A program made the position numbers and the translations under genes. A stretch of DNA of 64,000 nucleotides. Source: Blasia pusilla. Lineage: Eukaryota. Below the pieces are notes generated by a model that was not told the DNA's origin, made no database searches, and saw only the letters and a list, made by a program, of their open reading frames with translations. The stretch spans positions 44,764,001-44,828,000 of the forward strand of contig CM114271.1 of assembly GCA_050084515.1 (NCBI GenBank), in the 5' to 3' direction. Positions within the stretch are counted from its first letter, which is position 1; each line of letters begins with the position of its first letter. Shown here piece after piece: positions 6,213-64,000 of this stretch.

Positions 6213-6693
6213 TGTCACATCTGAGTAGCCGATAGGCGGAGATCTATCGTGGATAGGGCGTAGGAGCCAGCGGACTATCTTGAGTGTAACTTTGTCCCAC
6301 GGTGTCGGATGAGGTTGGAGATAGGTCCATTGTGTCAGGAACGTCGTTTCTGAAAACTTTCATGTTTGAGGTCTTTCACAACCGGGTGACTTGTTGACCA
6401 GATCACCCGCCCCTGGTAACCTGAGCGCGTAGGTTACCAAGGGGATAGTTATTTTTAGGGGAAGAGCCTTTTGGCTCTTGCCAACCTATATAAGAGAGGA
6501 AGAGGGCTTTCCTAAGCCATCTTTCTCATGTTGGGCTATTGGAGCACCTCTCTTGTATGTGTGTGAGATAGGACTATGGTGCTAGCGTCCAGATTCCTTG
6601 ATAGCACAAGGTGGACGAGGCTCGATATGCCGATGTAGATTGAGGAGTGGAGTTTTAGGCCGGGTGTGCCATTTTTACTACTCTTTATTTTTA
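6213..6693 (+). repeat. Terminal repeat unit A1 (promoter/R/U5-like part of LTR)
   Basis: Direct repeat of 13502-13984; homologous to the start of copy C at 55988. Confidence 0.92.
6487..6531 (+). promoter_or_regulatory. TATA box (TATATAA 6487-6493) and predicted transcript 5' end (CATCTTTCTCATGT 6518-6531)
   Basis: TATA about 30 nt upstream of a motif complementary to the PBS; same layout in A2 and copy C. Confidence 0.65.
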
Positions 6694-6706
6694 CATGAGA
6701 AAGATG
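6693..6706 (+). promoter_or_regulatory. Self-priming-type primer-binding site ACATGAGAAAGATG
   Basis: Lies where A1/A2 homology ends; exact reverse complement of 6518-6531; lacks the TGG start of a tRNA PBS. Confidence 0.75.
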
Positions 6707-7856
6707 TCAGGGGGCTGGTGGGAATTTGTTGTTTGCAGGGAGGCAAGCGAGTTGCCTTGGTCGAGAGCCCCTAGAGACGCGTGTGTTGCGGGTGTTGGTT
6801 ATTTTTCTATTCGGAAGGCTGTGGGCGGAAGCACTATCCGTTTTTCTCAGATTTTGCTGGTGTGGATTGAAGGGGGACAACAACCAAGTGTAGTGTGCGG
6901 TGGGGCGTCGGGTGTACGCGAGTGAGGATGTCGAGAGAGAGAAGAAAAGGGCACGTTTGGATCTTGCAGCTGTCGAGGGACTGTCAAGTAAAGGCGACTA
7001 GGTTAGGTCGCGAAGGCTAGGTTTAGGGTGCGGAGGACGGGCGCGGCCACATGCAAGGGGCGCGGACAAGTGGACAAGTGCAAACAGAGGACGGGCGCGG
7101 CGACGGGCGAGGGGCACGGACGGACGGACACCCCCTCCCCCCGCGCATTTACTACCTTTTTTCGAACGTGGTTGGATGGCAACGTGGTAGGGTTCAGGAT
7201 GTGGTGACCAGGTTATCAGGTTGGAGTTTCTTACGTAGTTAGGAGAGTTACATGGTTAGGGTCAAGATGGACCCTCTACACCGATGAGTTGAAAACGGAG
7301 AGTTAGTGTCCATGATGGCGACGGGTTTTCCGCATCTATTGGCGAGAGGATTGACATGTTGGTTGAGGAGAGTGTTGTGTTGCGGACGTTGTCGTGTCAC
7401 ATGGAGGAGTACGTGTTGACGATGCCGTAGGTTGGAGGGCGTGATCAGGTTACCCATTCGAGCCCCCTTTTCCCACACTTGTCGTGTGTGATAAAGAGTG
7501 CTGGGTATCGGGTAGTAGCTGGTGCTAGGTGGGTGCAGTGATGGTGACGAGAGTAGATTCTTTTCTTGTGTAGCATGTTGGTGGATATACGGCGGTTGCC
7601 GCGTAGGGGTCGCATGTATGACTTGAGAGTGTCGCTAGGTTAGGTGAGTCAGTTGGGAGGCTCATGGTGAGCCCGAGTGTTGAGTGTACGTGAGTTCGGG
7701 TATGTCATCACGGGATTAATGTTAGCATAGTTGAGCTAGTGAGGAGTGTGGGAGACTCTCGATGAGTCTGAGTGCTTGAGCGGGTGAGACAGGGTTGTCA
7801 TCACGGCGTTCTTCCAGGGTTCGGAAGAACAGGGTAGTGCGAGCAGTAGTAGTGAT

Positions 7857-8710
7857 GTGACACGGAGTGGAGTGAGATACCGAGGGGTTATCAGTGAGGA
7901 GCTACCTCGACATCCATCCGTGGCTGGATTGTCATCACTAGACACCGGTCTAGTGACAAGATCGCAGACGGAGGCAGTATCGCTTGGCAGGAGATGGACG
8001 ACATGGGCCATCGGGGCATGCGTCATTTCTCGGGTGCAGTGGGCACCATCAACTTAGATGATTTTATCAAGGAGTTTGACACGTGGTGCGACTCCCAGGA
8101 GATACGGAACCCGACACATTTCAACCCTTTCATGGCATAGAAGGGGTTGTTCCAGCACTTAGAGGGTCCTCCGATGGATGACTGCATGGAGTTCCGATCA
8201 CTATATTCAGTAGAGATCGATGCTTGGAGGATGTATTGGGCTCTAGGGTATGTGTCCACTAGTGGTCGGGAGACATATGATGGGATTGTGAGAGGAGAGA
8301 GACCCACACCATGAGCCCGGAGACTAGATGGAGAGGAGGGCAGTGAGATAGGCGATGTGGCAAAGACCTCTGGTGGTAGAGGACCACCCAGCTTCAGCCC
8401 CACAGTGGAGTTCTTCCGATAGTTGGGGAAGAGCTACCAGGGCGTACGCAGCGATAAGCTTAAGAGTCTTCAGGATTTTCAGCGATGATCGGGTGAGAGT
8501 CTGAGAGAGGCATTCATGCGCGTGAGGAGGCTGATCATTGCTACGTATGGAGTGATTGAGGCGCCGTCAGTCGAGTATTGGTACGGGGTTCTAGACCGAG
8601 AACTACGGAGGAGAGTCCGAGATGCGATGCCGATTCACACAGCGAAGCCCACATTGAAGGTGGTCTTTGAGTTGTCTGTGCGTATTGAGCTCAACATGAG
8701 TGAGGAGCAG
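7857..8710 (+). pseudogene. gag: Gag (capsid-like) of copy A, with stops and frameshifts
   Basis: DDFIKEFDTWCD...KGLFQHLEGPPMDD and GESLREAF...YGVLDRELRRRVRD, matching copies B and C. Confidence 0.8.
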
Positions 8711-8956
8711 GTAGCGGATAGTCCCACGGAGAGACACGCCATGGCGGGTGTCTCTTCCCATGTTGGCGAGACCTCTTCACCATGGTGGGGTACAACTCGA
8801 GAGCTACAGAGGAGTGCCGTCAACCTCGTGAGGCAGGCGTGGAGTCATGCCTTTATCCCGGAGCAACAAGAGTCAGGTGGCGATCGGGCTTCTGGAGTGG
8901 AGACGTTGACCCCACTGGATACCACACCCATTGTGTGGCAGTGTCTAGAGGAGGGT

Positions 8957-9880
8957 GTTAGGGTGTTAGATCTCTTCAGAGGGATTAGCACAGAAGTGGT
9001 TGCAGTATTGCAGGGAGGCACACGGGTGCATCAGTACCTTTATGTGGAGAGAGATGAGACCGCGCGGCGAGTATCAATACGTCACGTGGTGAGATTGGTC
9101 CATAGGTATCTTGAGTTGTTGCTGGTATCTGCAGTACGGGGATATCAGCATACACTACCCACCGATATCTCTTTGGTGGGGGCGCAAGATCTGGATAGAG
9201 TTGGCACCATTCATTTGGTGATTGTTGGATGGCCATGTCAAGGTCATTCGTCAAGTGGCCGAGGATTTGGATTGCAGGATCCGAGGTCAAGGATATTTTG
9301 GGAGATGTTGCGAGTAGTACGATACTTGCAGGAGAGTCAGACATGTTCTCCAACGTACATTTTGGAGAACGTGTCATTGTTGGGAGACACTCGTGCATGT
9401 GTGATGACGAGTGTGCATCAGGTAAGGTCCTGGTTGGGACTTGCTGTGTTGTTAGATGCAGCGAGAGTTGGGTGGCATGCCCATCGTCCATGACTCTGGT
9501 GGACGAATCTGATACCATCAGAGGTACTGAGTCGAGCATACGATGGAGTCCAGAGAGCACCACATCTCACAATGGATGTTATTTTGAGCTCAAGGCGTCG
9601 ATCTTAGGTGGTGACACGGGATGATAAACCACCGTTGGCCATGGCCAATAGGATGGGGGAGTTGAGGGCAGCCTTACCTACATTGGTGAGCTTCCCAGCA
9701 TCCCATGCCTTTCGTCCAGGAGGGCCAGGCATGATTTGGGATGAGGTGACCGAAGCATTGGAGGAGCCTACAGCAGATGAGCGCGAGCGTGCCATGGGGT
9801 TCGCTATCGGTACTACGGCGGTGCCAGGGATGACTGAGGCATCCCGGAGATAGGTGTTGGGGCAGGCGATGGACCTCAAC
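8957..9880 (+). pseudogene. C5 cytosine DNA methyltransferase domain (DNMT3-like) in polyprotein of copy A
   Basis: Motif I VLDLFRGIST, II YVE, IV VIVGWPCQG (Cys codon 9236-9238), VI ILENV, VIII AHRP*LWWTNL, IX ERERAMGF, X RR*VLGQAMD; one frame broken by 3 in-frame stops. Confidence 0.92.
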
Positions 9881-10206
9881 TATCTCACATGGATAGTTAG
9901 CCTAGCTATGGTTGAGCAGAAACGGATGCGAGTGTCATCCATGCCGTCACGTCCACGAGTTGGACCATTGCCTACAGGGTATGTACAGGCATTGGCTGGG
10001 GACGGGACAAGGAGAGATAGGCACCCATGGACTTCCTGGGACGTCGTTCGAGCGGAGAGTGCGAAGGCGGCCAGAGTAGCATATGTTCATTTTTTGGATG
10101 TGGAGCATGGTGTACAAGGTCAGAGTGGAGTGGCTGTTGCGGAGGTGGCTAGGATTGCTACATAGCAACCAAAGCCGGAGGTTGCGTCCCCCCGAGTGAG
10201 ATCACG

Positions 10207-13144
10207 ATGGAGACTTGGAAGCCTGTGATAGGTCTCAAGTTGATAGGAGGAGAGCAACGGCGAGTTCATAGGACTCTGAGAGGGCATGTCAGTTGTTTTG
10301 CCTTCAATATGAGAGACTTGGGTACGCTGAAGGGTCCCGGGATACAGATTGAGTTGGCTAGTGATACGCCGATCTTTCGTCGACCCTAGAGGTATTCCGA
10401 TATGGAGCGAGCCTTGATTCATAGCAGGAGTCAAGACTTGTTGGAGGCAAGAATTGTGGAGTTATCACATGGGGAGTATGCATCTGCCACAATCATACCG
10501 GCGAAGAAGGATATGTATGGCAATTGGACGGATAGGCGGATGTGTGGAGATTACCGTCCTATCAACCGACAGATTAGGTCAGATCGGTACGCCATGCCTA
10601 CTCTTGAGGAGATCTTTTGATGCGGTAGGGCATGCAAAGATCTTCAGTACTTTAGATTTTGGTGCTGGCTATCATCAGCTTCCTATCAGGTTGGAGGACA
10701 GGGAGAAGACAACATTATGGGGGATAGATCTGTTTGGGAGAGATTGCTTGTATCAGTGGCGGTTCTTACCATTTGGGTTGAAGAACGCGCCTGCAGAGTT
10801 TCAGAGAGTGATGGATAGGATTCTACCTGGCTTGGATTTTGTACAATGTTACATAGATGATATTCTTATCTTCAGTTCCACGATTGAGGAGCATGAGTGA
10901 CACCTGGAGGAGGTGTTTCGGCGATTGCAATTACATGGACTGAAGTTACATCCAGGCAAGTGCAGATTCTTTTAGGAGCAGATTGAGTACTTGGGACACA
11001 CCATATACCCAAGTGGGTTAGGCGTTCAGCAAATGAAGGTAGAGGCTCTTGCGCAAATTCCACGCCCTACAGATATGAGTCGAGTCCGAGCATTTCTTGG
11101 ACTGGTGAACTTCTATCGACAGCATGTCAAGGGTTTTAATGCGATCGCAAAGTCTTTGATCTTGTTGACGAGACTTGATCAGGTTTGGTTGTGGGGAGAT
11201 GATCAAGAGCGAGCATTTCAGGAGCTCAAGGACAGGTTGACGTCCTCATCCATTTTACAGAGACCGGTTAGGGGTCGCCCATTCCAATTACATACGGATT
11301 GGAGCATGTTGGGTCTAGGAGCAGTGCTTACTCAGAGGGATGATGAGGAGAGGGAGTTCGTGGTGGCTTACACGAGTCGATCGAACAACATTGTAGAGGC
11401 GAAGTACAACTCCTACCAGAGAGAGTGCTTGGCTGCAGTGTGGGCCGTGGCACATTTCAGGTGCTATTTATTCGACAAACCTTTCACACTTATCACTAAT
11501 CATCATCCGTTGAGGTGGTTGATGGAGTCCGACAAGCTTACGGGAAAGCTTGCTAGGTGGGCTCTATTATTGCATGAGTATGAGTTTGAGGTGGTTCGTA
11601 GGCCAGGTCGGCTGAACCAGGATGCGGACAAGTTGAGTCCTAACCCATGTCCGAGACAAAGAGACGACACACGAGCTCGATGGCACGGAGAGAGTGATGA
11701 GGAGATGGTGCTCGGGTGGCATGCATCTGCCTATCTTTGTTGGTTGACTATGGTTGGTCAGCCACAGGTGATGACTCTAGTGGTGGGGTTGGATGATGAG
11801 TCTTTGGATCCGGAGGTCAGTGAGGAGGCGACAGGTGGTCGTGATATCCATGACAACGTGGAGGTTGTGGAGTTCTTGCGCACTGGCGTCATAGCGAGCA
11901 CAGTGAGTGCTAGGGAGCGGGATCGGATCCTACAGCGAGCCAGGAGGTTCAGGTGGGAGGGGACTCACATTTTTCGGGTATGGGGAGATGGTAGGATACG
12001 AGTGGTATCTCATCCTTCCCAACGAGCACGTGTAGTGCGACATGCCCATGAGGAGTTGGGACATTTTGGAGTAAAGCGTACTTATAGCTTACTCGAGGTT
12101 CAGTATTGGTGGCGCGGTATGCATACTAGGGTACAACAGTTTGTGGCCAGATGTATGGTATGTGATAGAGTGCGAGCATCCTTCAATGCTCCCACTCCGT
12201 AGTTACATCCTTTTCCAATTATGGGTTTAGGTTATCGGTGGAGTTTAGACTTTGCGGGACCATTGCCATTGACTAGGCGTCATCATAGGTACGTGTTGGT
12301 CATGGTGGAGCATTTCTCCAAGTGGATAGATTTGGTGGTACTACCGGAAAAGGCGAGCAAGGGAATAGCTTATGTGTTTCTAGATCGTGCGCTTAGTCAC
12401 TTTGGTGCACCGGCGGAGGTGTTGACTGACCAGGGTAATGAGTTCAAGGGAGAGTTTCAGGCCTTGTGTGATCAGGCGCTAATAGATCACCGCACCACGT
12501 CCAGAGATCATCCTGAGGCGGATGGGTTGGCGGAGAGAGTGGTACAGACGGTGAAGAGAGGGTTACGCAAGTATGGCTTGTAGCGGGGACAGTTGAGGGA
12601 GTGGGACCTACAGTTGCCATGGTTGGCTATGGGTTATCGCCTTAGTCAGTAGGCATCCTTGGCGTCATTTTCACTGTACTTTTTGCTCTTTGGGAGAGAT
12701 CCAGATTTACCTGCAGCCATTCGACGTGACATGGCGGAGGTGTTAGATCTTGATGATCCAGATGTGTGGGTACAAGCATGTTCTCGAAGGGCGGAGGCTT
12801 TTCGTAGAGTTATGCCTATGGCCTTTGAGAACTTAGCTATTGCTCAGTATAGAGATACATTGAGGTACGCGACCATTCGTGGATGAGGTTATCGTCCAGG
12901 GATTAGGAGGTTTCATCCTGGAGATTATGTGTATTTGCAGCAAGCGGCACCCACGACACTAGATGTCACTACAAGACGCACGATCCTACGTGTGCGCGAG
13001 GTATTACCGACCGGAGTCCTCATGTTGGAGGGACGGGATGGTATGGTTTGGAAGGATCATATGCGCAATTGTGCGCCATGTCATCTTTCGAACGTAGATG
13101 GGACAGTGGATCCAAGCTTGGCAATGGTACCTGCATGCTTGAGA
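10207..13144 (+). pseudogene. pol: Reverse transcriptase, RNase H and DDE integrase of copy A
   Basis: RMCGDYRPIN, LPFGLKNAPAEFQ, YIDDILI; LHTDWS...ECLAAVWA; HEELGHFG..CMVC, WSLDFAGP, TDQGNEF, GLAERVVQ. Confidence 0.95.
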
Positions 13145-13279
13145 TGTATGTTGTGCGGATCTACGAGGGGTGCAACCACCATGTTGGTATGTGATGGTTG
13201 TTCTCGAGGGTGGCATATATCATGTCTGACCCCCCCTCTTGATGTAGTTCCCAGGGAACGATGGATGTGTCCGAGATGT
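13145..13279 (+). other. PHD finger (C4HC3) at integrase C-terminus, copy A
   Basis: CMLC...MLVCDGCSRGWHISCLTPPLDVVPRERWMCPRC. Confidence 0.92.
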
Positions 13280-13352
13280 GTATAAGATAGTAGGTCACGT
13301 CAGAGAGATGTGATATTTTCTATCTGGAGTTGGAGGGATCCAACTGCCAGCT

Positions 13353-13362
13353 AGGGGGGCGG
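13353..13362 (+). promoter_or_regulatory. Polypurine tract of copy A
   Basis: AGGGGGGCGG directly before unit B1; equivalents at 43006-43016 and 63694-63703. Confidence 0.85.
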
Positions 13363-13499
13363 TTGTGTGATCTCCATGTATATGTATGAGTTGATTTTTG
13401 TACATGTGTGGATCGACCAATGTGTGGGGAAGATTGGTGTTGTGTGGTGTAGATGTGACCAGCGATGTATGTTGTGTAGCGATATGTATGCGCACGACA
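13363..13499 (+). repeat. Terminal repeat unit B1 (137 bp, U3-like)
   Basis: TTGTGTGATC...GCACGACA, repeated at 13985-14121. Confidence 0.92.
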
Positions 13500-13501
13500 A
13501 C

Positions 13502-13984
13502 TGTCACATCTGAGTAGCCGATAGGCCGAGATCTATCGTGGATAGGGCGTAGGAGCCAGCGGAATATCTTGAGTGTAACTTTGTCCCACGGTGTCGGATG
13601 AGGTTGAGGAGAGGTCCACTGTGTCAGGAACGTAGTTTCTGACAACTTTCATGTTGAGGTCTGTCACAGCTGGGTGACTTGTTGACCAGTCATCGCCCCT
13701 GTAAGTAGCTTTGTCTTGCGCAGTTACTAAGGGGATAGCTATTTTTAGGGGAAGAGCCTTTTGGCTCTTCCCAACCCTATATAAGAGAGGGAGATGACTT
13801 TCCTAAGCCATCTTTCTCATGTTGGGCAAGTGGAGCACCTCTCTTGTATGTGTGTGAGATAGAACTAGGGTGCTAGCGTCCAGATTCCTTGATAGCACAT
13901 GGTGGACGAGGCTCAATATGCCGATGTAGATTGAGGAGTGGAGTTTTAGGCCAAGTGTGTCATTTTTACTACTCTTTATGTTTA
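13502..13984 (+). repeat. Terminal repeat unit A2
   Basis: Direct repeat of 6213-6693, separated from B1 by AC. Confidence 0.92.
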
Positions 13985-14121
13985 TTGTGTGATCTCCATA
14001 TATATGGATGAGTTGATTTTTATACATGTGTGGATCAACCCTTGTGTGGGGAAGATCGGTGTTGTGTGGTGTAGATGTGACCAGCGATGTATGTTGTGTA
14101 GCGATATGTATACGCACGACA
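13985..14121 (+). repeat. Terminal repeat unit B2 (137 bp)
   Basis: Direct repeat of B1; followed by TSD CCTT. Confidence 0.92.
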
Positions 14122-33638: not shown

Positions 33639-34177
33639 TATCGTACGTCTACTCTCCTTGAACGTTAATCTTTATTGTTGTGAAAGCGTGTGTTCAGTAG
33701 GTCACTCTCTCAACGATGATCTGCATCCAAACACGCACTCACGTTAGTCGGGTTTGGATCAATCAACAGTTCTAACTCGCCAAGTCCTCGACTCGGCCTC
33801 TCATGACGCTTGTCATGACCATACGGATTATGTCGTAGAGTATAGTGTGCTAGTAGAGGCCATACCTTATGTAGGGCCATAATGTCTAGCTAGAGATGCG
33901 GTTTCATACATAGGGTTGGGGGTTACTCAGTTGAGGGTGACTTTTCCAGTAGGGCCCGCTCTTAGGTTGGAGGATATAGTGTGGAGTGCACTCAAAGAAC
34001 AGTTAGTTCTTTGAGTTGACCCTGTTGCGTTGGGAGTTAGCCTTGGTAGTGAGTAGAGCTACTGGCTATGGTGGTTCCCGCAAGCTTCGACCTGGATTAT
34101 CCCATCGTGGAGTGGGTTTGGCTTGATTGTATGTGATTCTATACGTATTTTATGACAATAGGTCTTTCAGGGATTTC

Positions 34178-34190
34178 ACTCAAAGAACTA
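34178..34190 (+). promoter_or_regulatory. Self-priming-type PBS of copy B (ACTCAAAGAACTA)
   Basis: Exact reverse complement of TAGTTCTTTGAGT at 34004-34016, about 30 nt after ATATA at 33974. Confidence 0.65.
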
Positions 34191-35694: not shown

Positions 35695-37110
35695 TTGTCT
35701 GGTGGTCTGGTTGTGGACCGTGTTGCGGAGAGTGGTGGTTTTACACGGAGTGGATTGAGGTATCGACTACCTTTTCCACTTCCCACGGTTGATGAAGAGG
35801 AGGACGAAGGTGTTCCAAACATCGAGTCTTCTACGTTGTTATCGAGTGTTGCAGCTCCATTGATTTGGGACATGGACGGGATATATGGGGCCATGAAGGG
35901 CCCACGACAATACTCAGGTGAAGTGGGCACCATTAAGTTGGAGGACTTCATTCAGGAGTTTGATACGTGGTGTGATATGCAGATGTTGCGAAACGCCACG
36001 TTGTTTACACCCTTCTTGGCTTGGAAGGGGTTGTTTCAGCACTTGGAGGGACCACCCATGGATGATTACCATGAGTTTAGGAAGGACCATGTTGCTTAGA
36101 TTGAAGCGTGGAGACAATATTGGTCTCCAATCTATGAATCTCTCACCCATGGTGGTATTGGTAGTAGTGCTCCTACTATGTCAGCCAGCCCGACGTTGAG
36201 TGGTACGAGTACGAGCCGGAGTGGGGGTAGCCATGGAGGTACCAGTGGAGGTACTAGTGGAGGTACTAGTGCCCCACCATACTTCAGCCCGGTTGTAGAG
36301 TTCTTCAAGATGTTGAAGAAGAACTATCAGGGAGTGAAGACAAAGAAGTTGAGGAGTCTCCAAGAATTTGAGCGAAAGACTGGTGAGAGTCTTCGTGAGG
36401 CATACACTCATATGTGACGCTTGATTTAAGTTATCTAGGGTGTGATTGAGGCTCAGGAAGTCCAATTTTGGTATGGGATCTTGGACAGAGAGTTGCGCCG
36501 CAGGGTACGTGATGCTACTCTTATGAGTGATGATTCACCCACATTGACCCATGTATTTGCTCTATCTGAGAAGATTGAGCTTAACATGATGGAGGAGAGA
36601 GTGGTGATATCCGCATTCAATAGGGATACAACAACTACTTCTCGTGTTCAGCAGTTCACCTCAAAGTCTCGTAGTAGTGGTGGTGGTAGTAGTAGTGGGA
36701 GTCGTGGGAGGTACACACGACCTCAGTCAGGTCCTAGAGGGATACTTGCGTAGAGACCATTGCCTTCATTTGCTGCCCCGCAGCAAGGACAGTCATGTTG
36801 GACATGTGGAGGTGATCATGTTAGAAGGGTTTGTCCCCAAGAGGATGGGAGACGGACTTTGGAGGATGGGCCTCAGTCGGCCCCAACTCAGTGTGATCAT
36901 TGCGGGAGACCAGGTCATCCTCGAGAGCGTTGCTTTGATCTTCATCCTGAGTTGAGATCAGGCTGCGGCCATGGTGGAGTAGCTCCGAGAGGCCGAGGTG
37001 GTAGAGGTGGTAGGGGTGGTAGAGGTGGACCAGTGGTTGGAGAGCCTACGTTGGCTACCCCTACCACTATGACAGAGTCAGCTATGGCTGCCAGGATTGA
37101 GCAGTTGGAG
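35695..37110 (+). pseudogene. gag: Gag with two zinc knuckles and RGG tract, copy B
   Basis: EDFIQEFDTWCD..., CWTCGGDHVRRVC, CDHCGRPGHPRERC, RGRGGRGGRGG; single frame with stops. Confidence 0.85.
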
Positions 37111-37806
37111 TAGAAGTTGGGTACTATGGCTGGTATTCAGCATAGAGCAGGTTCGAGAGCAAGGGATTCCACCTCTTATGGAGGGGATGATCTCTCTTAT
37201 ATGGCGAGTGCAAAGACCTGAGGTTGAGGCATCACAGCAGCGATTCTGAGAGGAGCCACTCGAGCGTCAGAGCCACGTGGTGCTACTGTAGAGTTGGACC
37301 CATAGAGGGGTGAGGCTGGGAGGCAAGCTAGGCTTCCCCAATCATTCTTATTGTCTGAGGTGCTTAGGACTCCATCCATGGTTCCTACGCATCCTATTGA
37401 GCCTACAGTGGGGACTGAGGCATCTACATCGCATGTAGTAGACACGGACGCAGCATCTAGTGCAGTATTGCGGATGGCAACTTCAGTGTTGGGATTCCCA
37501 TTGTTTTCGGTCACAGAGCTGATGGCTTTAGGAGTTGACTTAGCTCCTGTATTTCAGCTAGCAGCCACGTTGTGTGAACGTGGGGGTATTACTGCTACAC
37601 GTGCTGAGGTCGATGAACGTGTTACGGTGGAGCGACCCTCTATGTCAGGTATAGCATTGAGTACCAGTGCTACTTGGCAAGCAGCAGCAGCGAAGATGGA
37701 TGCATTACCAGCCCGACCAGCCATTGATCGTGAGAGGCTTACACTTGGTGTATGTATGTTGGACAACCGGAGTGGGATATTCCGATTGGTGAGTCCTACA
37801 GGATAG

Positions 37807-38106
37807 GTGTATAGACCAGATAGAGTCTTGTTAGAATCTGGTGCCCAAACTTTGATGTTGCGAAAGGCGGCATGTATTGGTTTGGGTATTCGGAGGTCAA
37901 AGCTTGAGCCTTGCCCATTCCAGATTCAAACATCATTTGGAGGAGCCAATGATAGGTCTCAATTCATGACACGGGAGAAGTTGTCTGTACAATTGAGACC
38001 AGATCATGCGACTGATAGCTCCCGGTTGGGAGTACCTACATTGGTCACATCAGTCGAGCAGTATTGTAACCGATGGGTTTTCAGATGGACTACTGGACTG
38101 AGATAG
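37807..38106 (+). pseudogene. Aspartic protease, copy B
   Basis: VLLESGAQTLML (copy C has FLLDSGAHPLML). Confidence 0.75.
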
Positions 38107-38537
38107 CGTCTTAAAGACCTGGTTGGCAGTCCGAGGATGGACATATGAGCCAGATTCTTGTGAGATTTATTTATGGGGCTCGACCTGGAGGCTCTTCCCC
38201 AACGGTGTTAGCATCTGTGGCTGGTTTTAGTGGAGTAGTCACTTGGCCATGAGACTTTTTGGAGGGTAATCTTTGTGCTATGGATTCTCCTTTGCATGAG
38301 GAGGTAGAGGAGGTCCCTAGTTTTTCAGAAGTGGCATCCTCATCGTTGGATGTGCCACTTTGGAGTTCAGGCGGTGCACTACCGCAAGAGGCTGATCGCC
38401 TAGTGCAGGAGGCTTGGTGTGAGGCTGTTATACCTCATGAGGAAGAGGAGGCCCCATGGCGGACTCCTACTTCTGGTCCAGTTGGGTTATGCCCTTTGGA
38501 TACTACACCCATTGTATGGCATTATCCGCCGGAGGGC

Positions 38538-39470
38538 ATTTGTGTGTTAGATCTCTTTGGTGGGATTAGCACTGGTTTGGCTGCAGTGTTGCAGACCGGT
38601 ATTCTTGGGCGGAGATACGTGTATGTGGAGGGAGATGAGATGGCCCAGAGAGTCTCATCCCGACATATCGGTCAGTTGATGCGGAGATATCCTGAGTTGT
38701 TGCCACCATCAGCTATTCGTGGGTACCAGCGTGCTTTGCCGTCACACATTGCATTGTTGGGGGCGTAGGACCTTGAGAGGGTTGGTCCTGTGGATTTGGT
38801 GATTGTTGGATGGCCATATCAGGGTCATACACGTGCTGGTCGTGGTGAGGGATTACACAACCCTAGGTCTCGATTATTTTGGGAGATGTTATGGGTGTTA
38901 CGACATCTTCACGTTCATCAAGCACGTGCTCCAGCTTACATTTTGGAGAATGTTCCATTGTTGGGTGACACTTGGACCCGGATGATGGCAAGTGTTCATG
39001 AGGTGCGGTCTTGGATTGGACCAGTGGTGTTGTTGGATGCAGCGCGAGTTGGCTCGCGTGCACATTGTTCACGCTTGTGGTGGACAAACTTGTTGCCTAG
39101 GGAGGTTCTACGTCGAGCATATGATGTAGTGCAGCGGGATCCTTGCCTTACAGTGGATAGTATTTTGGATACAGGGCGACTTTCTCAGGTGGTGAGGGTT
39201 ATTGATCAGTCACCCATGGCAGTGGTGAACCGTGTGGGCCAGCCTAGGATGGCACTACCCACATTTGTGAGTTTTCCCTCGTCACATGCCTACATGGAAG
39301 GTGGTCCTGGGCTTGTATGGGATTCTCATGTGCGACAGTTGGTGGAGCCTAACGCTGATGAGAGAGAGTGTGCGATGGGATTTGCTACCGGTGTGACAGC
39401 AATTGCTTCCATTTCTGAGGCTTCACGAAGTCATATGTTGGGTCAAGCCATGGACTTGAATTGTTTGACC
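38538..39470 (+). pseudogene. C5 cytosine DNA methyltransferase domain (DNMT3-like), copy B
   Basis: VLDLFGGISTG, YVE, DLVIVGWPYQG (catalytic Cys to Tyr, TAT 38817-38819), ILENV, AHCSRLWWTNL, ERECAMGF, LGQAMD. Confidence 0.92.
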
Positions 39471-39737
39471 TGGATTTTGAGTCTTGGGATGGCCAAGCAG
39501 CGTCGACTTTGGACTATGTCTATGGGTCTTCCACCCCTTGTGATGAGATTGATGGCTACCGGGATGGTAGAGACATCGGCTGGGGGCGAGGAGAATAGCA
39601 TTTTGCATCCTTGGAGTAAATGGGATGTAATGGTTGGGCATGTGGAGTTGGTTGCTCATGCCGGTGGAGGAGTTATTTGCTCAGATGATGGTATAGCTAA
39701 GGGTGTACCATCTTGTGAGGGGGTTGCCTAGCAGCCA

Positions 39738-42701
39738 ATGGCGTCCTCCTCTCCCTCTAGTGTGCCAGTGGAGGAGACTTGGGAGCCATTACTTGGGCCC
39801 AAACTTAGGGGAGGTGAGAAACGACGCTTGACACAATTCCTACGTGCTTATAGGAGTTGTTTTGCCTTTATCATGAAGGAGTTGGGTGCTTTGGTTGGAC
39901 CTGGTATACGGATTGATTTGGCTAGTGATTCGCCAATCTTCCGTCGTCCCTACCGATATAGTGATATGGAGAGGGACTTGATTCAGAGTAGGACGTTGGA
40001 CCTTTTGGAGGCTGGATTAGTGGAGTTGTTGCATGGAGAGTATGCATCAGCCATTGTCATGCCTGCTAAAAAGGATGTGCATGGCAACTACACGGATAGG
40101 CGGATGTGTGGAGATTATCGTCCTTTCAATCGGCAGACCAAGGCCGATAGGTATGCCATGCCTACACCTGAGGAGATCTTTGATGTGGTGGGACAGACAA
40201 AGATTTTTAGTACTTTGGATCTTCGGGCATGATACCATCAGTTGCCAATTTGAGAGAGTAACAAGGCCAAGACAACATTTTGGGGTGTCAACTCTCATGG
40301 CAAGGATTGTTTGTACCAATGGAAATTCTTACCCTTTGGGTTGAAGAATGCATTTTCCGAGTTTCAGAGAGTGATGGACAGGATCCTAGCAGGGTTGGAT
40401 TTTGTTTGGTGTTACATTGATGATATCTTGGTGTTCAGTAACACGGTGGAGGAGCATTAGATACATTTGCAGATTGTGTTTGAGCGGTTGAAAGCTCATG
40501 GTCGACGTTTGCATCCAAGAAAGTGTAAGTTCTTCCATGAGGATGTAGAGTACTTGGGTCATGTGATCTATGCAGGTGGTTTGGGAGTTCAGCAAGCAAA
40601 GGTGGAGGCTATTGCACTTATTCCTCGTCCGGTAGATGTGAGTAGAGTTTGGGCATTCATGGGATTAGCAAACTACTATCGGAGGTATGTAAAGGGATTT
40701 AGTGCTATGGCAAAGCCTTTAAACCAATTGCTGAAATCATATCAAGAGTGGCACTGGGGAGATGATCAGGAGAGAGCTTTTGTGGAGCTCAAGGCCCCGT
40801 TAGTGACGGCGCCTACCTTGAGGAGACCTATCGAGGGGCCCATTTTGGATTACACCGATTGGAGTAGGTTGGGACTTGGAGCGGTGTTGACACAACATGA
40901 TGATGAGCACATAGAGTTTGTGATGGCCTATGCAAGTTGTTCGAATAATGCAAATGGAGTCAGCGCTATAGTTCATATGAGGGATAGTGCTTGGCAAGAG
41001 TATGGGAATGTGGGCACACTTTAGGTGTTACTTGTTTGGCACACAGTTTACCCTTATTCGATCACCACCGCTCAAGTGGTTGATGGAGTCCGACAAGCTT
41101 ACAGGAAGCTTGCACGGTGGGCTCTTATCTTATAAGAGTATGACTTCCGGTGGTACATAGACCCAGAGTTGCCAACCTTTATCCGATGGGTTGAGTAGGA
41201 ACCCATGTACTAGCCAAGAGGATGCAATTGGGGCTAGATGGCATGGCGAGGTTGATGAGGAGATGGTGCCAGGTTGGCATGCATTCGACTTTTTATGTTG
41301 GTTAGGGGTGGACTCTAGTATGGAGGACCACATGACATCTTACTCTAGTCAGATGGCCAGCCTTCAGATCCTAAGGTTGGAGATGGTGGTACGGATCAGC
41401 GTGTTCATGATGATGCGTTGGTGTTGGAGTTCCTACGGACCAGTAGGGTGCCAGGCATAGTGAGTGCCAAGGAGCGAGACCGTGTTCTTCAACGTGCTAA
41501 GAGGTATAGATTGGAGGGAACACATATTCTCCGTGTGTGGGAGGATGGTAGAGTACGAGTAGTCCCGCATTTGGCTCAGAGAGAGCGCATTGTGCGACAT
41601 GCCCATGAGGAGTTGGGACATTTTGGGGTAAAGCGTACGTATAGCTTACTCCTTGGTCAGTATTGGTGGCGTGGCATGCATACTCAGGTGCAGCAATTGA
41701 TGTCACGTTGTATGGTTTGTGACCGGGTGAGGGCATCATTCAATGCCCCTACACCATAGTTACATCCCTTGCCTATTATGGGGTTGGGTTACCGTTGGAG
41801 TGTGAACTTTGCGGGACCGTTACCGTTGACTGTATGACATCATCGATATGTGTTGGTGATGGTGGAGCACTTCTCAAAGTGGATTGAGTTGGTGGCATTA
41901 CCTGACAAGGCAAGTGAGGGAACGGCGTATGTATTTCTTGATAGAGTGCTTAGTGATTTTGGTGCACTAGCTGAAGTGTTGACCGACCAAGGTAGAGACT
42001 TTCACGGTGAGTTTCAGGTCTTGTGTGACAAGGCGTTGATTGATCATTGGACCACGTCTCGAGATCATCTAGAGGCGGATGGTTTTGCTGAGCGTGTGAT
42101 TCAGACGGAGAAGAGGGCATTGCGCAAGTATGGCCTACAAAAGGGGCATCTTGGAGACTGGGAAATTCAGTTGCCATGGTTAGCCATGGGGTAAAGGTTC
42201 AGTTGCCAAGCATCCTTGGCTTCCTTCTCACCTTATTTTGTGTTATACGGCCGAGATCCAAACTTGCCAGCAGTAATTTGTTGGGAGTCTAGTGAGGTGG
42301 TGAACCTTGATGACCCAGAGATGTGGATGAGAGTGTATTCTCAGCGGGCCGAGCTCTTTCGTAGAGTTATGCCAACAGCCTTTGAGAATCTTGCCATTTC
42401 TCTACACAGGGATACGTTGCGGTATGCAACCATTCGAGGTGGAGGTTATTGACCATCGATTCGTAGGTTCCATGTGGGGGACTATGTCTATTTGCAGCAG
42501 ATTACACCGACAACGTTGGATGTGACGGCAGGCCGCACTATTTTACGAGTGCGTGAGGTGTTAGCTTCTGGAGTTCTCATGTTGGAGGGTCATGATGGAG
42601 TTGTTTGGAAGGACCATGTGCGTAATTGTGCGCCATGTCATCTTGCAAATATGGATAGTACTATTGACCCAAGCTTAGCCATGATACGTGCTAGCTTGAG
42701 G
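39738..42701 (+). pseudogene. pol: RT, RNase H and DDE integrase, copy B
   Basis: RMCGDYRPFN, YIDD, YTDWS, HEELGHFG..CMVC, TDQGRDF, GFAERVIQ. Confidence 0.95.
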
Positions 42702-42842
42702 TGCATATTGTGTGGGTATGCTGGTAACGCAGCCCGTATGTTGGTGTGTGATCGGTGTTCTAGGGGTTGGCACATGATGTGTTTGACTCCACGTATGGAT
42801 GTTGTTCCTATTGGAAGGTGGGTTTGTCCTCGATATACTTAG
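42702..42842 (+). other. PHD finger at integrase C-terminus, copy B
   Basis: CILC...MLVCDRCSRGWHMMCLTPRMDVVPIGRWVCPRY (last Cys to Tyr). Confidence 0.9.
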
Positions 42843-43121
42843 GAGTGGTAGATGACTTGATCTTTGCATGATATGGATTACAGATGGGCGACTAACGATG
42901 GGGCAACCTAGCACCCGTATTTCTGATTCGTGCACCCAAGAAGGTGTATAGCATGTAGTAGATGTATAGGGCTACTTGGGAGTTAGAGGGACCTAACCGC
43001 CAGTTAGGGGGGCAAGTTGTGATACACTTGTGTTTGTGGATGCTCTTGTCTATGTTGTGTATGTATGTGAATATGGTATGTCAGCGATGTATGTTGTATG
43101 ATGATGTGGATTCGCACGACA

Positions 43122-55987: not shown

Positions 55988-58182
55988 TATCACATCTCAT
56001 TTCAACGAAGGTAGAGTTCTATCGCGTTGACGACATAGAGAATCAGTGGGCTATTCGAGTGTAACTTCATCCCGGAATGTCGGATGAGGTTGGCGAGAGG
56101 TCTGTTGTATCAGGAATATTGTTTATGGTGATTTCCCTATTTTGGTTTTAGGCTGTCAGATGACCCGTTGACCGAGTCAACAATCACTCGGTAACTTGTG
56201 CACGCAGGTTATCGTTTGGAGGCTATTTTTGGGGGAAGAGCCGTTTGGCTCTTTCCAAGAGTATAAGAGTGAGAGAGATGGCTTTCTCAAGCCATCTTTC
56301 TCATGTTGAGCCTTATGAGCACCTCTTTTGCATAGACATATGTGGGTGTGTAGGAGTTAGGGTACTAGCGTCCGGATTTCCCCACTAGCGTTCGATATGT
56401 CGATGTAGATTCATGAGTGGAGTTTTAGGCCGGGTGAGCCATTTTTCCTACTTTTGATTTTACATGAGAAAGATGCAAGGGCAGGGGGAATTCATTGTTT
56501 GCAGGTAGGCAAGCGAGTTGCATCGGTTGGGGAGCTCTTGGAGACATATGTGTCGCGTTTGTTTGTCTTTTTTAAAGTTTGAGAGGCCGTGCACGGAAGC
56601 GCTGCTCATTTTCTCCTGATTTTTGCGGGTGGCGGACTAGAGTAGAGAAGCAGCAGAGTGGCGGACATGGTGCTCGAGTGTAGCACAGAGAGAGAGAGAG
56701 AGAGAACACATTAGGTCACGAAGTGCAACCACCTTGAGGAGGCCGGCCAGGCTAGGTTGCAATTTAGGGCAAGACATTTAGGTCAGGGGCACCGCTCAAG
56801 TTTTGTATAGTTGCGGGTGGAATTTCGGAAGCCAGGGGTAGGCGGGTGGAGTCCGCAAAGTTGAGGGTAAGGAGCCGTTGAGCTAACGCACGAGGTGCAA
56901 AGATTGGGGTGCAGAGTGCGTGGACAGGAGTTGAGAGGCCGTAGGGGATAAGGAAGGCCATTAGGGTCGGGTGACGTACATACGTACATGCCTTTTAACA
57001 TATGTACCATTAAGGGCGGATGCAAGGCCGCATAGGGTGGCGAGCCCGAATGTAGTTGGGCTAGGGAGAAAGGGACGGGGAAGGATGAGGGCACGGGCCA
57101 AGGCCTTCCCCCCCCGGCCGCCTCCATTTAAGTCTGGGAAGGGGTAGAAGGCATTATGGCTCCAAGACAGTAGGAAGGAGTAAGGGCTGGCTCATAGGGA
57201 GCCGCGCCACGCAAGCAGAGCAGGGAGGTAAATGTTTGGGGCTAGGTGAGAGCGACGGGAGGGCTTGGGCCGCACGCTGGGAGACGCCGCACCGGGCTAG
57301 GAAGGAGGAAGGAACGAAGGTGAGAGCAAGGGATGGCTGCATAGGGCGGCGTGCCCGGAGCTCCAAGGACATAGGAAGCTTCATAGGGCAGCGCACCAGC
57401 CAGTCAAGTAAGGGCCGCGGATGGGGCAGCCAGAGTTGGAGAAGGAGATGGGTTGGGAGTGGCTTGGACGGTGTAGGGGTTGAACGTGGTAGGGCAGTCC
57501 GACATGGTACCACAGTTGATGGAAATGACGTGGTAAAGTTGGACGTGGTTGGGGTTGAGCGTGGTTGAGCATTGGTGACACTTGGTGTTTCGCGAGCATG
57601 ATGGGATTCGCGATGGGAGTTTGGCAGTTATTACAAGTCGGTTGGGGGTCAACTCATTAGTTCTTCACCGACTGGGAATTGCGAGGGTTGTGATGGGGAC
57701 ACACGCGCCAACGCAAACGGGAAGGTCAATGTGTTGGTCAAAGAGGGTGTCGTGTTGCGGAGGTTTTCATATCACATGGAGGAGTGAGCGTTGACGGTGC
57801 CGTAGGTTGGAGGGCGTGATCTGGTTACCCATTCGAGTCCTTTTTCTTGCACTTATCTTATGTGATTGAGAGTGCTGGATGGCGGGTAGTTTCTAGGGCT
57901 AGATGGATGTAGCGATGGTGACGAGTGTAGACACCTTTCATATGTAGCATGTTGGTGGATATACTATAGTTTCCAAGTAGGGGTCACGTGTGTTAGTGGC
58001 TTAGGTGAGTTAGTTGGGAGGCTCATGGTGAGCCCGAGTGTTGAGTGTGTGTGAGGCCGGGTGTGTCGTCACGGGATTTCCATTAGCGTAGGTGAGCCAC
58101 GGAGGAGTGTGGGAGATTCTTGGTGAGTCTGAGTGCTTGAGCGGGTGAGACACGGTTTGTCATCACGACATTCTTCCAGGGT

Positions 58183-60684
58183 TTGGAAGAACGGGGTATT
58201 ACGAGCAGTAATAGTGGATTGACATGGAGTGGTGTGAGGTATCGAGGGGTTTCTAGTGAGGAACCACACCAACTTCCATCCATGGCTGGATCGTCATCAC
58301 TAGACAACGGTTCTAGTGATGAGATCTCAGACAGTGACGGTGATACATGGAGAGAGATCAACGACATGGGCCACCAAGGCATGCATCGTTTCTCGGGTGC
58401 GGTAGGCACCATAGATCTACATGATTTCATCCAAGAGTTTGACACGTGATGCGACTTTCAGGAGATACGGACCCCTACGCGGTTCAACCCTTTTATGGCA
58501 TGGAAAGGGTGGTTCTAGCACTTGAAGGGTCCGCCGATGGATGACTGCATGGAGTTCCAATCTCTATACTCTACAGAGATCGATGCTTGGAGGGTCCGCC
58601 GATGGATAACTGCATGGAGTTCCAATCTCTATACTCTACAGAGATCGATGCTTGGAGGGTGTATTGGGCTCCAGGATATGCGTCCACTATTGGTCGCAAG
58701 GCGTATGATGGGATAGTGAGGGCGGAGAGACCTACACTATCAGCTTGGGAATGAGATGGAGAGGATGGCAGTGAGACTGGTGAGGTGGTAGAGACCTCTT
58801 GTGGTAGAAGACCACCAAGTTTCAGTCCTACAATGGATTTCTTTCGATAGTTGGGGAGGAGCTACTAGGGCATGCGGATCGACAAGCTGGAAAATCTACA
58901 AGATTTTCAACGGAGATCGGGTGAGAATCTGAGGGAGGCGTTCAAGCGAATGCATTGGTTGATCGTTGCCTCAAATGGGGTGACTCAGGCGCAGTCAATG
59001 CAGTATTGGTATGGGGTGCTGGATGAGGAGCTATGGAGGAGAGTTTGAGATGCGATGTTGCTTCACATGGGGAAGCCCACATTGAAGGTGGTCTTCTAGT
59101 TGTCTGAGCGGATAGAGCTCAACATGAGTAAGGAGTAGGTGGTGATCACGGGATTTTTGCGAGATACGATAGATCCATGAGTAGAAGTAGACCCATAGAT
59201 CCCCCAAAATACATCAGTACCACCAGAGCAAGCCTCTGGGCCCAGAGAGCAAGGCGGGTATCATATGCCGATGAGGCAACGACCCGTACCGACATATGTT
59301 TCCCAGTAGGGACCAGGGTTGGCTTGTTGGACGTGTGGTGGGTCACATAGGCAAAGGGACAGCCCACAACATGGGAGAGGGCCACGGGTGCCTCCCATTG
59401 CTCAGGAGCCACAGAGGATGGCCCCACCACACTTACAATGTGATCATTGTCACCAATATGGTCACACTAGGGAAAAGGTGTTATGATCTTCGCCGGGAGG
59501 TGCGTCTTGAGGTAGGCTGAGGACTTTGGGGCGAGAGAGTTGGTGGAGATTGAGTGGTAGATGATCGTGGTGGTAGAGTGCCATCACCAGTCACGGGAGA
59601 TGGAGGACGTGCACCCGATGCAGGGCTCCTTACGCGCATTGATCAGTTGGAGCAAAGGATTGCTGCCATGACGATGATGCAGTTACAGGCAGGCGCGGAG
59701 CTGAGAGTAGCTAGTGTAGCGCCAACCTCCACATTATACCATGATGTTGGTGAGGATTGTGCGGGGATGGGATTTATGTGTAGTACGGCTCAGGTTGAGC
59801 CTACTGCGGTGATGAATCGGGGTGCTGCAAGAGTAACCAAGCCATCGAGAGGTGGGGTTGAGATTGACCCATAGGAGGGGATTGATGGGCGGCAAGCCAG
59901 GGTTCCCCAGTCATTCACATTGTCGAAGGCACTACATACACCGTCGATGGTGCCTCGATGATCGGTAGTGTCCACGGGTGGGATAGGTGCGTCGATGTCA
60001 CAAGGAGTTGGAGAGATGACTCCTATGCCGGCTCGAGAGGAGCAAGTGTGGACCACGTTGTTGGAGATGGCCACTAGGATGAGCCACGCTCCGTTTTTTT
60101 CCGCCATGGAGTTGGCGACTTTGGGAGTTGGACCAGTGGATGTGTTACGGCTAGCCGCCACATTGTGTAGGCATGGAGAGTTGATTGCCTCTCGTTCAGA
60201 GATAGTTGAGGAGGTGGTGGGCTTGCCCTCGGAGCAGGAACTCACAACGTTCCCCACTAAGTCATGGCATGTGGCGGCGGCGGAAGTTGGTAGACATGCC
60301 AACTCGACCGGCCATAGAGTGAGCCATGACCACGCCAGTTGTGGTGTTGTTGGATAACTGAGAAGGAGTTTTTCTCTTGGTTAGTCCCACAAGTACGATG
60401 TACCACCCGCAGTGCTTCCTACTTGATTCTGGAGCGCATCCCTTGATGTTAGGGAAGGCGGCATGTTTGGCATTGGGATTACGGAAAGGCAACATTGAGC
60501 GTTGTCCCTTTCAGATACAGACCTCTTGTGGGGGCGTATCACCCACACAGTTCATGACTTGACATGATTTGGTGGTTAGACTCCAACCAGAGCATGAGTC
60601 GGATAATGCAATGGTGCGCAATCGGGCGATTACGACACCGACAAAGTCATATGATGTGTTGGTAGGGGGTACACTGTTGTACCC
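58183..60684 (+). pseudogene. Gag, linker and protease of copy C
   Basis: DFIQEFDT, GPPMDDC, IELNM, FLLDSGAHPLMLGK; many stops. Confidence 0.8.
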
Positions 60685-63231: not shown

Positions 63232-63519
63232 GCCATCTATTGGTGCAGTTTGCACGGAGTAGTGCTGGTCAACCACGTGGGAATACGGTGACCACGTTGG
63301 CAGCATTCACATGTGGTGTTTGCTGATCAAGAGGGTTCGGGGAGAGGATCACACATGCGGAGGACATTCCCGTAGCAGATAGTCCCACGGAGAGACATAC
63401 CACAGTGGGTGTCTCTTCCCATGGTGCAGAGTTGCTGTATTATCATTGGGTACGAGCTTTGAGATGCGTGGAGTGCATACGAGCTCGTGAGACACGTATG
63501 GAGCTGTGTTTATGTTTGG

Positions 63520-63597
63520 AGCAGGGTATAAGAGTGTTAGATCTCTTCAAAGGGATCAACACTACGGGTTGTTGTAGTGTGGCAGTGTTGCAGGGAT
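63520..63597 (+). pseudogene. Residual DNMT motif I in copy C
   Basis: EQGIRVLDLFKGINT...VAVLQG, then jumps to sequence matching the PHD end/3' UTR of copy A. Confidence 0.8.
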
Positions 63598-64000
63598 GAC
63601 GCCATCGATGGTACTAGATGTGTATAGGATAAGAGATCTTGTCGGGAACATATGTGTGTGCTATCTGGAGTTAGGGGGAACCAAGTTCCGACTAGGGGGG
63701 CGATTGTGGGATCCCAATGTACATGCGTGAATGTATTTCGTTTATGCGTGGATCTACCCGTATGTTGGGGAAGATCGGTGTTGTGTGGTAGGTAGATGTG
63801 ACTTGCGATATGGGTTGTGTAGCAATGTGTATGAGCACGACAGCTTGGCTTGAGTCCACTGAAGAAAATCACCTTCTTCGTAAACTCATCCATAGAAAGT
63901 GAGTTCAATTATGCACTGAACTCTTGCACATAAGCACTAAGGGACCCACTTTGTCGCAACCGCACAAACTCCATGCCATCGCGATACTCTTGATGTTTCG

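Follow-up and report, generated by a model that had tools for sequence, protein, structure and literature searches.

A DNMT3-like methyltransferase domain in Gypsy retrotransposons of the bryophyte Blasia pusilla

Cytosine methylation is the main weapon of plants against transposons, and a transposon that encodes a de novo methyltransferase of its own is therefore a paradox. Such an element lies in a 64,000-nucleotide stretch of the Blasia pusilla genome (contig CM114271.1 of assembly GCA_050084515.1, positions 44,764,001 to 44,828,000; this whole stretch is the window, and coordinates refer to it unless another locus is named), where a preliminary description had noted a cytosine methyltransferase (DNMT) inside the polyprotein of a Gypsy retrotransposon. 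The locus raises three questions: what kind of element this is, whether the methyltransferase is a lasting part of it, and what the enzyme might do. Our data indicate that a bryophyte lineage of 'Gypsy-DNMT3' retrotransposons – the kind to which KnitGypsy-Dnmt3 belongs – is very probably represented in the window by three dead copies, and of the identity and architecture set out below we are highly confident. That the enzyme methylates the element's own complementary DNA (cDNA), or the site of insertion, is suggested by the sequence and is put forward here tentatively.

The kind has been known since 2018. KnitGypsy-Dnmt3, from Klebsormidium nitens, was described as an intronless, unpermuted Dnmt3 in the Pol open reading frame (ORF) of a Gypsy element, with a Ka/Ks below 0.2 for the DNMT and with repeats 'the same as that of a DIRS retrotransposon' (de Mendoza et al. 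2018, PMC5890265). The passages concerned place the acquisition 'in the K. nitens lineage' and do not mention Marchantia; they bear out the statement of the preliminary description that retrotransposon-borne DNMTs are in print for dinoflagellates and one charophyte. Later papers cite only the 2018 report for streptophytes, one printed statement holds such elements to be absent from land plants, and a classification of plant long terminal repeat (LTR) retrotransposons (REXdb, PMC6317226) mentions neither a methyltransferase nor Marchantia. A literature search, which did not reach supplements or papers behind subscription (that on the Marchantia genome among them), returned no report of Gypsy-DNMT3 elements in bryophytes or other land plants and nothing under the Marchantia gene identifiers, and met the name 'Gypsy-DNMT3' in just two papers. 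The suggestion that the land-plant occurrence was undescribed thus survives in narrower form: the kind is published, but the literature searched appears to contain neither its occurrence in land plants nor the leaky stop, the anatomy of the insertions or a chlorophyte sister clade.

A methyltransferase inside a Gypsy polyprotein

Comparison of the window with itself revealed three related insertions, all on the forward strand (copies A, B and C; Table 1), A and B being 68-72% identical at the nucleotide level. On the open frames of copy A, Pfam gives the order PF00145, RVT_1, RT_RNaseH, Integrase_H2C2, rve and PHD finger; reverse transcriptase (RT), ribonuclease H (RNase H) and DDE integrase thus follow one another as in Ty3/Gypsy elements (PF00078, PF17917/PF17919, PF17921 and PF00665, in sequence). 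Copy B is collinear with residues 1-887 of a Marchantia protein, P0280, from gag through protease to DNMT. Its gag, protease and N-terminal DNMT pieces gave no Pfam match at E<0.01 and are recognisable only by way of P0280. The intact plan is gag with two CCHC zinc knuckles, aspartic protease, a DNMT3-like C5 cytosine methyltransferase, a UAG stop, then RT, RNase H, DDE integrase and a PHD finger.

The motifs of the methyltransferase are readily seen. A single frame of copy A (8489-10165) carries, unpermuted, LDLFRGIS, YVERDE, GWPCQG, ILENV, AHRP*LWWTNL, ERERAMGF and VLGQAMD; motif I reads FRG at 8972, with Gly changed to Arg, and PCQ is intact at 9233-9241. The same motif set occurs in copy B (38253-39731) and a remnant of motif I in copy C (GIRVLDLFKGIN), so that the motifs and coordinates first reported for these copies were right. 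A PF00145 search, proposed at the time as a check, was positive for copy A (E 9.6e-8; 32.3 bits, the cut-off being 22) but not for copy B alone (16.3-16.9 bits); relatives match the copy B domain at E values down to 2e-175. Chance is excluded as an explanation of the DNMT match by three lines of evidence: a phmmer search of the PDB with copy B, a search of the PDB with a family profile, and the number of matches in a representative library (1611 at E<=1e-3 and 209 at E<=1e-30, many of them in proteins of 1000-3400 residues).

The domain had been placed between protease and RT. This is true of copy B and of the remnant in C, but not of copy A, because copy A has lost its protease: the zinc-knuckle and protease part, about residues 292-787 of P0280, is missing in frame, and only residues 1-291 and 788-892 are matched. 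An in-frame internal deletion (8625-8916 against 36515-38497) joins the N-terminal part of gag in copy A straight to the DNMT; possibly this copy is a non-autonomous derivative and not a product of random decay.

What kind of methyltransferase is it? Searched against the PDB with phmmer, the copy B domain matched DNMT3A at 1.4e-7 and DNMT3B at about 1e-7, with DRM at 0.04 or weaker. A profile built from an alignment of 18 family members sharpened this ranking: DNMT3A at 5.7e-28 (100.8 bits) with DNMT3B and DNMT3C close behind, DRM at 7e-18 to 3e-14, HhaI and DNMT2 at about 1e-8, and no entry for DNMT1 among the 57 PDB matches listed. The profile is collinear with DNMT3A, whereas DRM is matched only by its C-terminal half (profile 54-183 against DRM 226-352), as expected of a permuted enzyme; the motif order is I-IV-VI-VIII-IX-X, with no circular permutation of the DRM type. 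An AlphaFold2 model of an intact relative, P0002 (pLDDT 82.7, pTM 0.84), found DNMT3A, DNMT3B or DNMT3C in all of the top Foldseek matches listed from the PDB (E 1e-18, target TM score 0.8), and in this fold match the stretch between motifs VIII and IX aligns along DNMT3A. Pfam placed no ADD, PWWP or other host companion domain beside PF00145, either in copy A or in the relatives. Judged from sequence and predicted fold, the catalytic domain is DNMT3-like, unpermuted and unlike DRM, as had been proposed, and lacks the features of a host DNMT3 gene. It agrees with the catalytic domains of host DNMT3A, DNMT3B and DNMT3C (PDB 2qrv, 6f57) in fold, in motif order and in the PCQ and ENV motifs; it differs in its low identity (about 20-22%), in having no ADD, PWWP or plant companion, in a motif X that reads GQAMD, and in lying within a transposon ORF. 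Plant DRM (PDB 4onj, 7l4c) belongs to the same DNMT3/DRM branch and forms the second-best group in the profile search, but is circularly permuted. Comparison with the Protein Atlas does not discriminate: a streptophyte PF00145 cluster (57 members) comes nearest, but two phage PF00145 clusters reach the same score.

Among named proteins, gene models of Marchantia polymorpha come closest; they are up to 76% identical, typically 1150-1330 residues long, and end just past the DNMT. Calypogeia fissa, Marchantia paleacea, Riccia sorocarpa and several Sphagnum species supply other near relatives, and a cluster look-up added more distant ones from Closterium species and from Klebsormidium nitens (GAQ93235.1, here P0173). 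Pfam resolves CCHC, Asp_protease_2 and DNMT in P0300, P0302 and P0296, DNMT, RT and RNase H in P0284, CCHC, protease, DNMT and RT in the Closterium proteins, and CCHC, protease and DNMT in GAQ93235.1; the placement of the DNMT is the same in all streptophyte relatives whose architecture could be resolved. GAQ93235.1 is collinear with P0280 along a stretch of 569 residues that begins at the protease active site and reaches motif X (E 2e-54), and matches the copy B domain at 1.9e-45, its DNMT being about 35% identical to that of the window. It is through this protein that kinship with the K. nitens kind is seen in sequence.

A Gypsy group of chlorophytes (Monoraphidium, Haematococcus and Chromochloris) and of many metagenome contigs has a homologous DNMT between RNase H and integrase, and a C-terminal PHD finger (P0128, P0138, P0150, P0152, P0205, P0265, P0368, P0396, P0407 and about 130 more). 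These elements share RT, RNase H, integrase and PHD finger with those described here, and their DNMT is 37-41% identical (E about 1e-48 to 1e-59); they differ in the position of the DNMT, which in our elements lies between protease and RT. Our literature search returned no paper on them. We built a maximum-likelihood tree of DNMT domains (LG+G4, no outgroup) from 96 of the 259 full-length matches, namely every one of the 27 in which the DNMT precedes RT, the named proteins, 40 random representatives of the chlorophyte architecture and 20 random unclassified rows. In this unrooted tree, for which the sample of architectures is biased by the search procedure, the chlorophyte architecture occupies one side of a branch with a Shimodaira-Hasegawa-like approximate likelihood ratio (SH-aLRT) support of 99, split from the streptophyte form with the DNMT on the protease side.

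Is the methyltransferase, then, a settled component? Relatives are encoded in 503 of 513 candidate stretches of JGI metagenome contigs, from which 80 loci were kept. Pairwise ratios of nonsynonymous to synonymous divergence (dN/dS; Nei-Gojobori, NG86) for 52 DNMT sequences, with stop codons masked, are 0.81-1.25 at dS<0.1 and 0.16-0.25 at dS>0.4, the latter in the range of the same loci's RT N-terminal part (0.17-0.26) and RNase H (0.18-0.33) at that depth. Copies A and B of the window give 0.18 (dN 0.276, and a dS of 1.51 that is near saturation). Selection on internal branches was approached through deep pairs only; the ratio near 1 that would have spoken against the family is not seen in those pairs, and the values resemble the published Ka/Ks for KnitGypsy-Dnmt3. 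Purifying selection has acted on the DNMT with the same strength as on RT and RNase H, and the earlier view that it is a stable component of the family, not a one-off capture, is borne out. In the DNA contigs that best cover copy A every bin, those of the DNMT included, stands at high word depth, a measure that is not a copy number; this fits many DNMT-bearing copies.

The stop codon, the PHD finger and the repeats

The UAG between DNMT and RT deserves attention. Walking downstream in frame from motif X in 72 rows (70 loci and two window copies), we found the first stop exactly 100 codons on in 16 rows (11 TAG, 5 TAA; L001-L003, L005-L008, L012, L015, L016, L020, L055, L057, L058, L061 and L072); the distance is 97 codons in copy B and 102 in copy A. 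The Marchantia ORF1 models terminate at this same position. In 12 of the 16, as in copy B, RT homology resumes without a change of frame at the codon that follows; the remaining four have no downstream match. Among the other close relatives (at least 62% identical to P0002) stops are mostly earlier, scattered and evidently premature, with a few rows running further, and many rows of distant subfamilies read on past the position.

With its neighbouring codons the stop reads TAG CAA CCA in copy A and TAG CAG CCA in copy B; the loci have TAG or TAA, then CAA CCC. Plant viruses with type I readthrough follow the consensus UAG_CAR_YYA (PMC3542737). Both window copies thus resemble the tobamovirus signal, with a downstream ORF in frame; they differ from it in that the element is a retrotransposon and that the putative readthrough stop separates DNMT from RT. 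From the conservation and context of the stop we infer that ORF1 – gag, protease and DNMT – would be the main product, with RT, RNase H, integrase and PHD finger reached by readthrough of the UAG. The DNMT would therefore be as abundant as Gag.

At the C-terminus of the integrase, where no chromodomain of the chromovirus type was found, stands a PHD finger (PF00628, E 3.4e-11 and 3.4e-9). Its nearest solved counterparts are KDM5B PHD1, CHD4, KDM5A PHD1, DPF2/3, PHF21A, UHRF1 and AIRE, with E values from 6e-13 (KDM5B PHD1) to 4e-8. These we take to be fingers that bind the histone H3 tail when K4 is unmethylated, and the unmodified tail is presumably the very signal read by the ADD domain of host DNMT3. 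If the finger described here also binds unmodified H3, the integrase could be tethered to the chromatin signal to which the ADD domain of host DNMT3 responds. In having a chromatin reader on the integrase region the element resembles chromoviruses and other PHD-bearing Gypsy elements, judged from the relevant passages of the papers (PMC6317226; Gypsy-7a_cRei, PMC9940879); unlike the former it bears a PHD finger and not a chromodomain, and unlike Gypsy-7a_cRei, with its order RNase H, PHD, integrase, it has the finger after the integrase. A PHD finger in the Chlamyvir clade was considered and rejected, as the papers describe chromodomains.

The ends of the insertions are no less unusual. Copy A has no plain LTR pair; its plan is A1 - internal region - B1 - AC - A2 - B2, with a B unit of 137 bp. 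The complete plan recurs in three of the 29 loci of at least 9 kb (L063, L066 and L071, representing two divergent subfamilies), and a B1/B2 pair only in four more (L012, L043, L076 and L078). Common to the four complete elements are a run of G directly before B1, an A2 that abuts B2, and no B before A1. The junction of B1 with A2 reads CACGACA, two nucleotides, then TGTCA or TATCA, and is like the junction of a circle closed end to end. Target duplications of 4 bp flank four of five insertions, at the start of A and the end of B (CCTT for copy A, GCTT for copy C, CATA for L063 and GGTC for L066); none was found at L071. Copy C consists of A, internal region and B with a perfect duplication and no A2 after its B. 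Copy B likewise stops at the end of B, with no A2-B2 downstream; at its 5' end, window self-comparison found no terminal repeat pair, and no start of the GACT+TG type appeared near 34-35.7 kb (22 such starts in the window, 22.5 expected, none at the right place).

Split repeats of this form are those of the DIRS-like PAT and Ngaro elements described by Poulter and Goodwin, which are arranged A1 - internal - B1 - A2 - B2, rely on a tyrosine recombinase and are not known to make target duplications. The elements described here share that plan but have a DDE integrase (PF00665/PF17921), TG..CA ends and 4-bp duplications; given the integrase, and the duplications at four of five insertions, we rejected membership of the DIRS/PAT/Ngaro group. 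Because the duplications sit exactly at the start of A and the end of B, the DDE integrase evidently inserts DNA that ends at these points. Were reverse transcription to proceed canonically from a plus-strand primer site ahead of B, each end would carry B-A instead, and inspection by eye found no clear tRNA-complementary primer binding site after A1. These features could be read as the opening of a circular form at its internal CA-NN-TG junction, a circle with two repeats yielding A-int-B-A-B and a circle with one repeat A-int-B. This would also explain A-int-B copies with perfect target duplications; copy C itself could have arisen either by recombination between B1 and B2 or by insertion of a one-repeat form.

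Set beside KnitGypsy-Dnmt3, then, the window elements have in common the Gypsy polyprotein, the intronless and unpermuted Dnmt3-like domain, the DIRS-like split repeats and the low dN/dS of the DNMT. They differ in host – a land plant, a bryophyte, as against K. nitens – and in features that the text passages of the 2018 report do not mention: the UAG that follows the DNMT, the PHD finger downstream of the integrase, and target duplications of 4 bp.

What the methyltransferase might do

In active copies the DNMT would be the C-terminal domain of the ORF1 product and would be made in Gag-like amounts, with RT, integrase and PHD finger following by readthrough of the UAG-CAR-YYA stop. The protease could free the DNMT, which might then methylate cytosines de novo, either in the element's own cDNA or in and around the new insertion; the integrase, through its PHD finger, may tether integration to nucleosomes with an unmodified H3 tail. 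This could be extended to a single history: one capture of a DNMT by a Gypsy lineage before the split of chlorophytes and streptophytes, with later movement of the domain within the polyprotein; a lineage still mobile in liverworts and mosses; a leaky UAG giving Gag-protease-DNMT at Gag level, the product methylating its own cDNA; and split repeats that arise when the integrase opens a circle at CA-NN-TG and does not use the ends of linear cDNA. Taken with all its parts, such a history strikes us as unlikely.

Several observations weigh against the account given here, in whole or in part. All three window copies are dead: copy A has three premature in-frame stops (TGA 9491, TAG 9605, TAG 9851), and copy B has a TAG at 38766, a Cys to Tyr change (TGT to TAT) in the PCQ motif, an Asp to Glu change in the protease motif and a frameshift near 38060. 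Present activity of the family is not favoured by the metagenome loci, where just 4 of 52 full-coverage DNMT matches are stop-free, nor by transcription. Three RNA runs of 10-12 million records each, labelled with the same organism as the DNA data that cover copy A best, gave 141-161 reads on copy A, mostly 95-99% alike, fitting partially and lying mainly over RT and integrase, with a depth below 1 in the DNMT bins. Since they are 95-99% alike and fit only partly, the reads come from other family copies. The first mate falls mostly on the reverse strand, as it does for sense RNA in the majority of stranded libraries. These data show that the family is weakly transcribed; of copy A itself they say nothing. 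As to readthrough, CCC takes the place of the consensus YYA in the metagenome copies, and in Closterium and some metagenome relatives DNMT and RT share one open frame, so that the stop is a trait of a subfamily and not of the Gypsy-DNMT3 kind as a whole. The assignment to DNMT3 rests on PDB ranking and fold and not on a tree with host DNMT3 and DRM, and GAQ93235.1 need not be one of the published KnitGypsy-Dnmt3 copies. Lastly, in the only assay in print for this class, the KnitGypsy-Dnmt3 domain produced no methylation in yeast, a result that the authors call inconclusive, human DNMT3B being negative there as well (the passages concerned of PMC5890265).

That yeast result is one of the reasons to consider that the domain acts on RNA, placing 5-methylcytosine on the genomic RNA or the tRNA primer within the particle, much as DNMT2 acts on tRNA. 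The domain is encoded in ORF1 with Gag, on the RNA-binding side of the element; DNMT2 is a detectable, if distant, match of the family profile; and RNA methylation was raised by the authors of the 2018 report for another retrotransposon DNMT (the passages concerned of PMC5890265). Yet the profile favours DNMT3A over DNMT2 by some twenty orders of magnitude in E value, DNMT3 enzymes fill the top fold matches listed, and the region between motifs VIII and IX runs along DNMT3A; an assay in which human DNMT3B also failed carries little weight. We regard a role on RNA as rather improbable. The target could instead be the host genome or rival elements – other transposons, or viruses – the DNMT serving as a module of defence or competition. 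Defence roles have been speculated upon for transposon-borne methylases (in passages of PMC6338049), and a finger resembling readers of unmodified H3 could aim the complex at host chromatin. No feature of the sequence, however, separates such a role from self-methylation, and the finger lies on the integrase side of the stop, not the DNMT side, so that the two need not travel together; to this proposal we give little credence.

It may be asked, finally, whether the methyltransferase frames belong to an element at all, and are not domesticated host genes, the result of a single capture of DNMT3, or chimeric annotations. Marchantia models with the domain are annotated as ordinary proteins, and most of the copies examined are decayed. 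Against this, the position of the domain is constant, in the three window copies as in the architecture-resolved streptophyte relatives; it lies within insertions that have target duplications, at hundreds of loci; and it is in frame with protease and RT, with no host companion by Pfam. That these frames are host sequence is hardly credible, and the Gypsy-DNMT3 reading is the one we retain.

The liverwort and moss elements, and above all the many copies annotated in Marchantia polymorpha, move the question of a transposon with its own methyltransferase into a land plant, and qualify the printed claim that land plants lack such elements. Marchantia polymorpha has genetics, transformation and methylomes. 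The leaky stop, the PHD finger and the split repeats supply concrete hypotheses on dosage, on targeting and on integration, respectively.

Layout of the window

The features of the three copies, and the extents of the complete-plan metagenome loci, are collected in Table 1.

Table 1. Positions of features of copies A, B and C in the window, and of complete-plan elements on their own metagenome loci
Feature	Copy	Position	Strand	Remark
Whole insertion	A	6213..14121	+	starts TGTCAC, ends CGACA; 4-bp target duplication CCTT at 6209-6212 and 14122-14125
Repeat A1	A	6213..6693	+	91% identical to A2
gag, N-terminal part	A	7994..8860	+	matches Marchantia P0280 residues 1-291
DNMT3-like C5 methyltransferase domain	A	8957..9880	+	PF00145; single-frame translation
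Conserved in-frame stop 3' of DNMT	A	10163..10165	+	context TAG CAA CCA
RT (PF00078), RNase H (PF17917/PF17919), integrase zinc finger (PF17921), integrase core (PF00665)	A	10418..12583	+	Pfam
PHD finger C-terminal to integrase	A	13145..13279	+	Pfam
Repeat B1	A	13363..13499	+	AGGGGGG run before, AC then A2 after
Repeat A2	A	13502..13984	+	pair of A1
Repeat B2	A	13985..14121	+	93.6% identical to B1; right end of insertion
Insertion	B	about 35872..43121	+	first matched gag residue to right end ...CGCACGACA
Protease region	B	37825..38064	+	LLESGAQ against LLDSGAQ in Marchantia P0280; frameshift near 38060
DNMT3-like domain	B	38538..39470	+	TAG 38766-38768; catalytic Cys to Tyr (TAT, 38817-38819)
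Conserved in-frame stop 3' of DNMT	B	39729..39731	+	context TAG CAG CCA; RT homology from 39732, same frame
RT, RNase H, integrase	B	39732..42194	+	71.5% nucleotide identity to copy A
PHD finger	B	42702..42833	+	Pfam
Insertion	C	55988..63842	+	starts TATCAC, ends CGACA; target duplication GCTT at 55984-55987 and 63843-63846
gag, zinc knuckles, protease	C	58375-60703	+	kept
Unrelated sequence, about 2.7 kb	C	about 60703-63372		inside copy C
DNMT motif I remnant	C	63523..63585 (about)	+	GIRVLDLFKGIN; remainder of DNMT through integrase deleted
Complete-plan element	L063	5991-15205		
Complete-plan element	L066	5633-14957		
Complete-plan element	L071	159-8728		

The bodies of the elements (6001-14000, 34001-42000 and 56001-60000) have a G+C content of 0.48-0.53 and, measured along the coding strand, a GC skew between +0.21 and +0.34; in the flanks G+C is 0.27-0.45 and the skew is mixed. 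Inside the elements the ratio of observed to expected CpG is 0.56-0.76. Elsewhere in the window an open frame of 202 residues on the reverse strand (44677-45285) has an end that looks by eye like a chromodomain (…YEYLVKWKGYHVKEATW…), and is probably the integrase tail of an unrelated Gypsy element of the chromovirus type.

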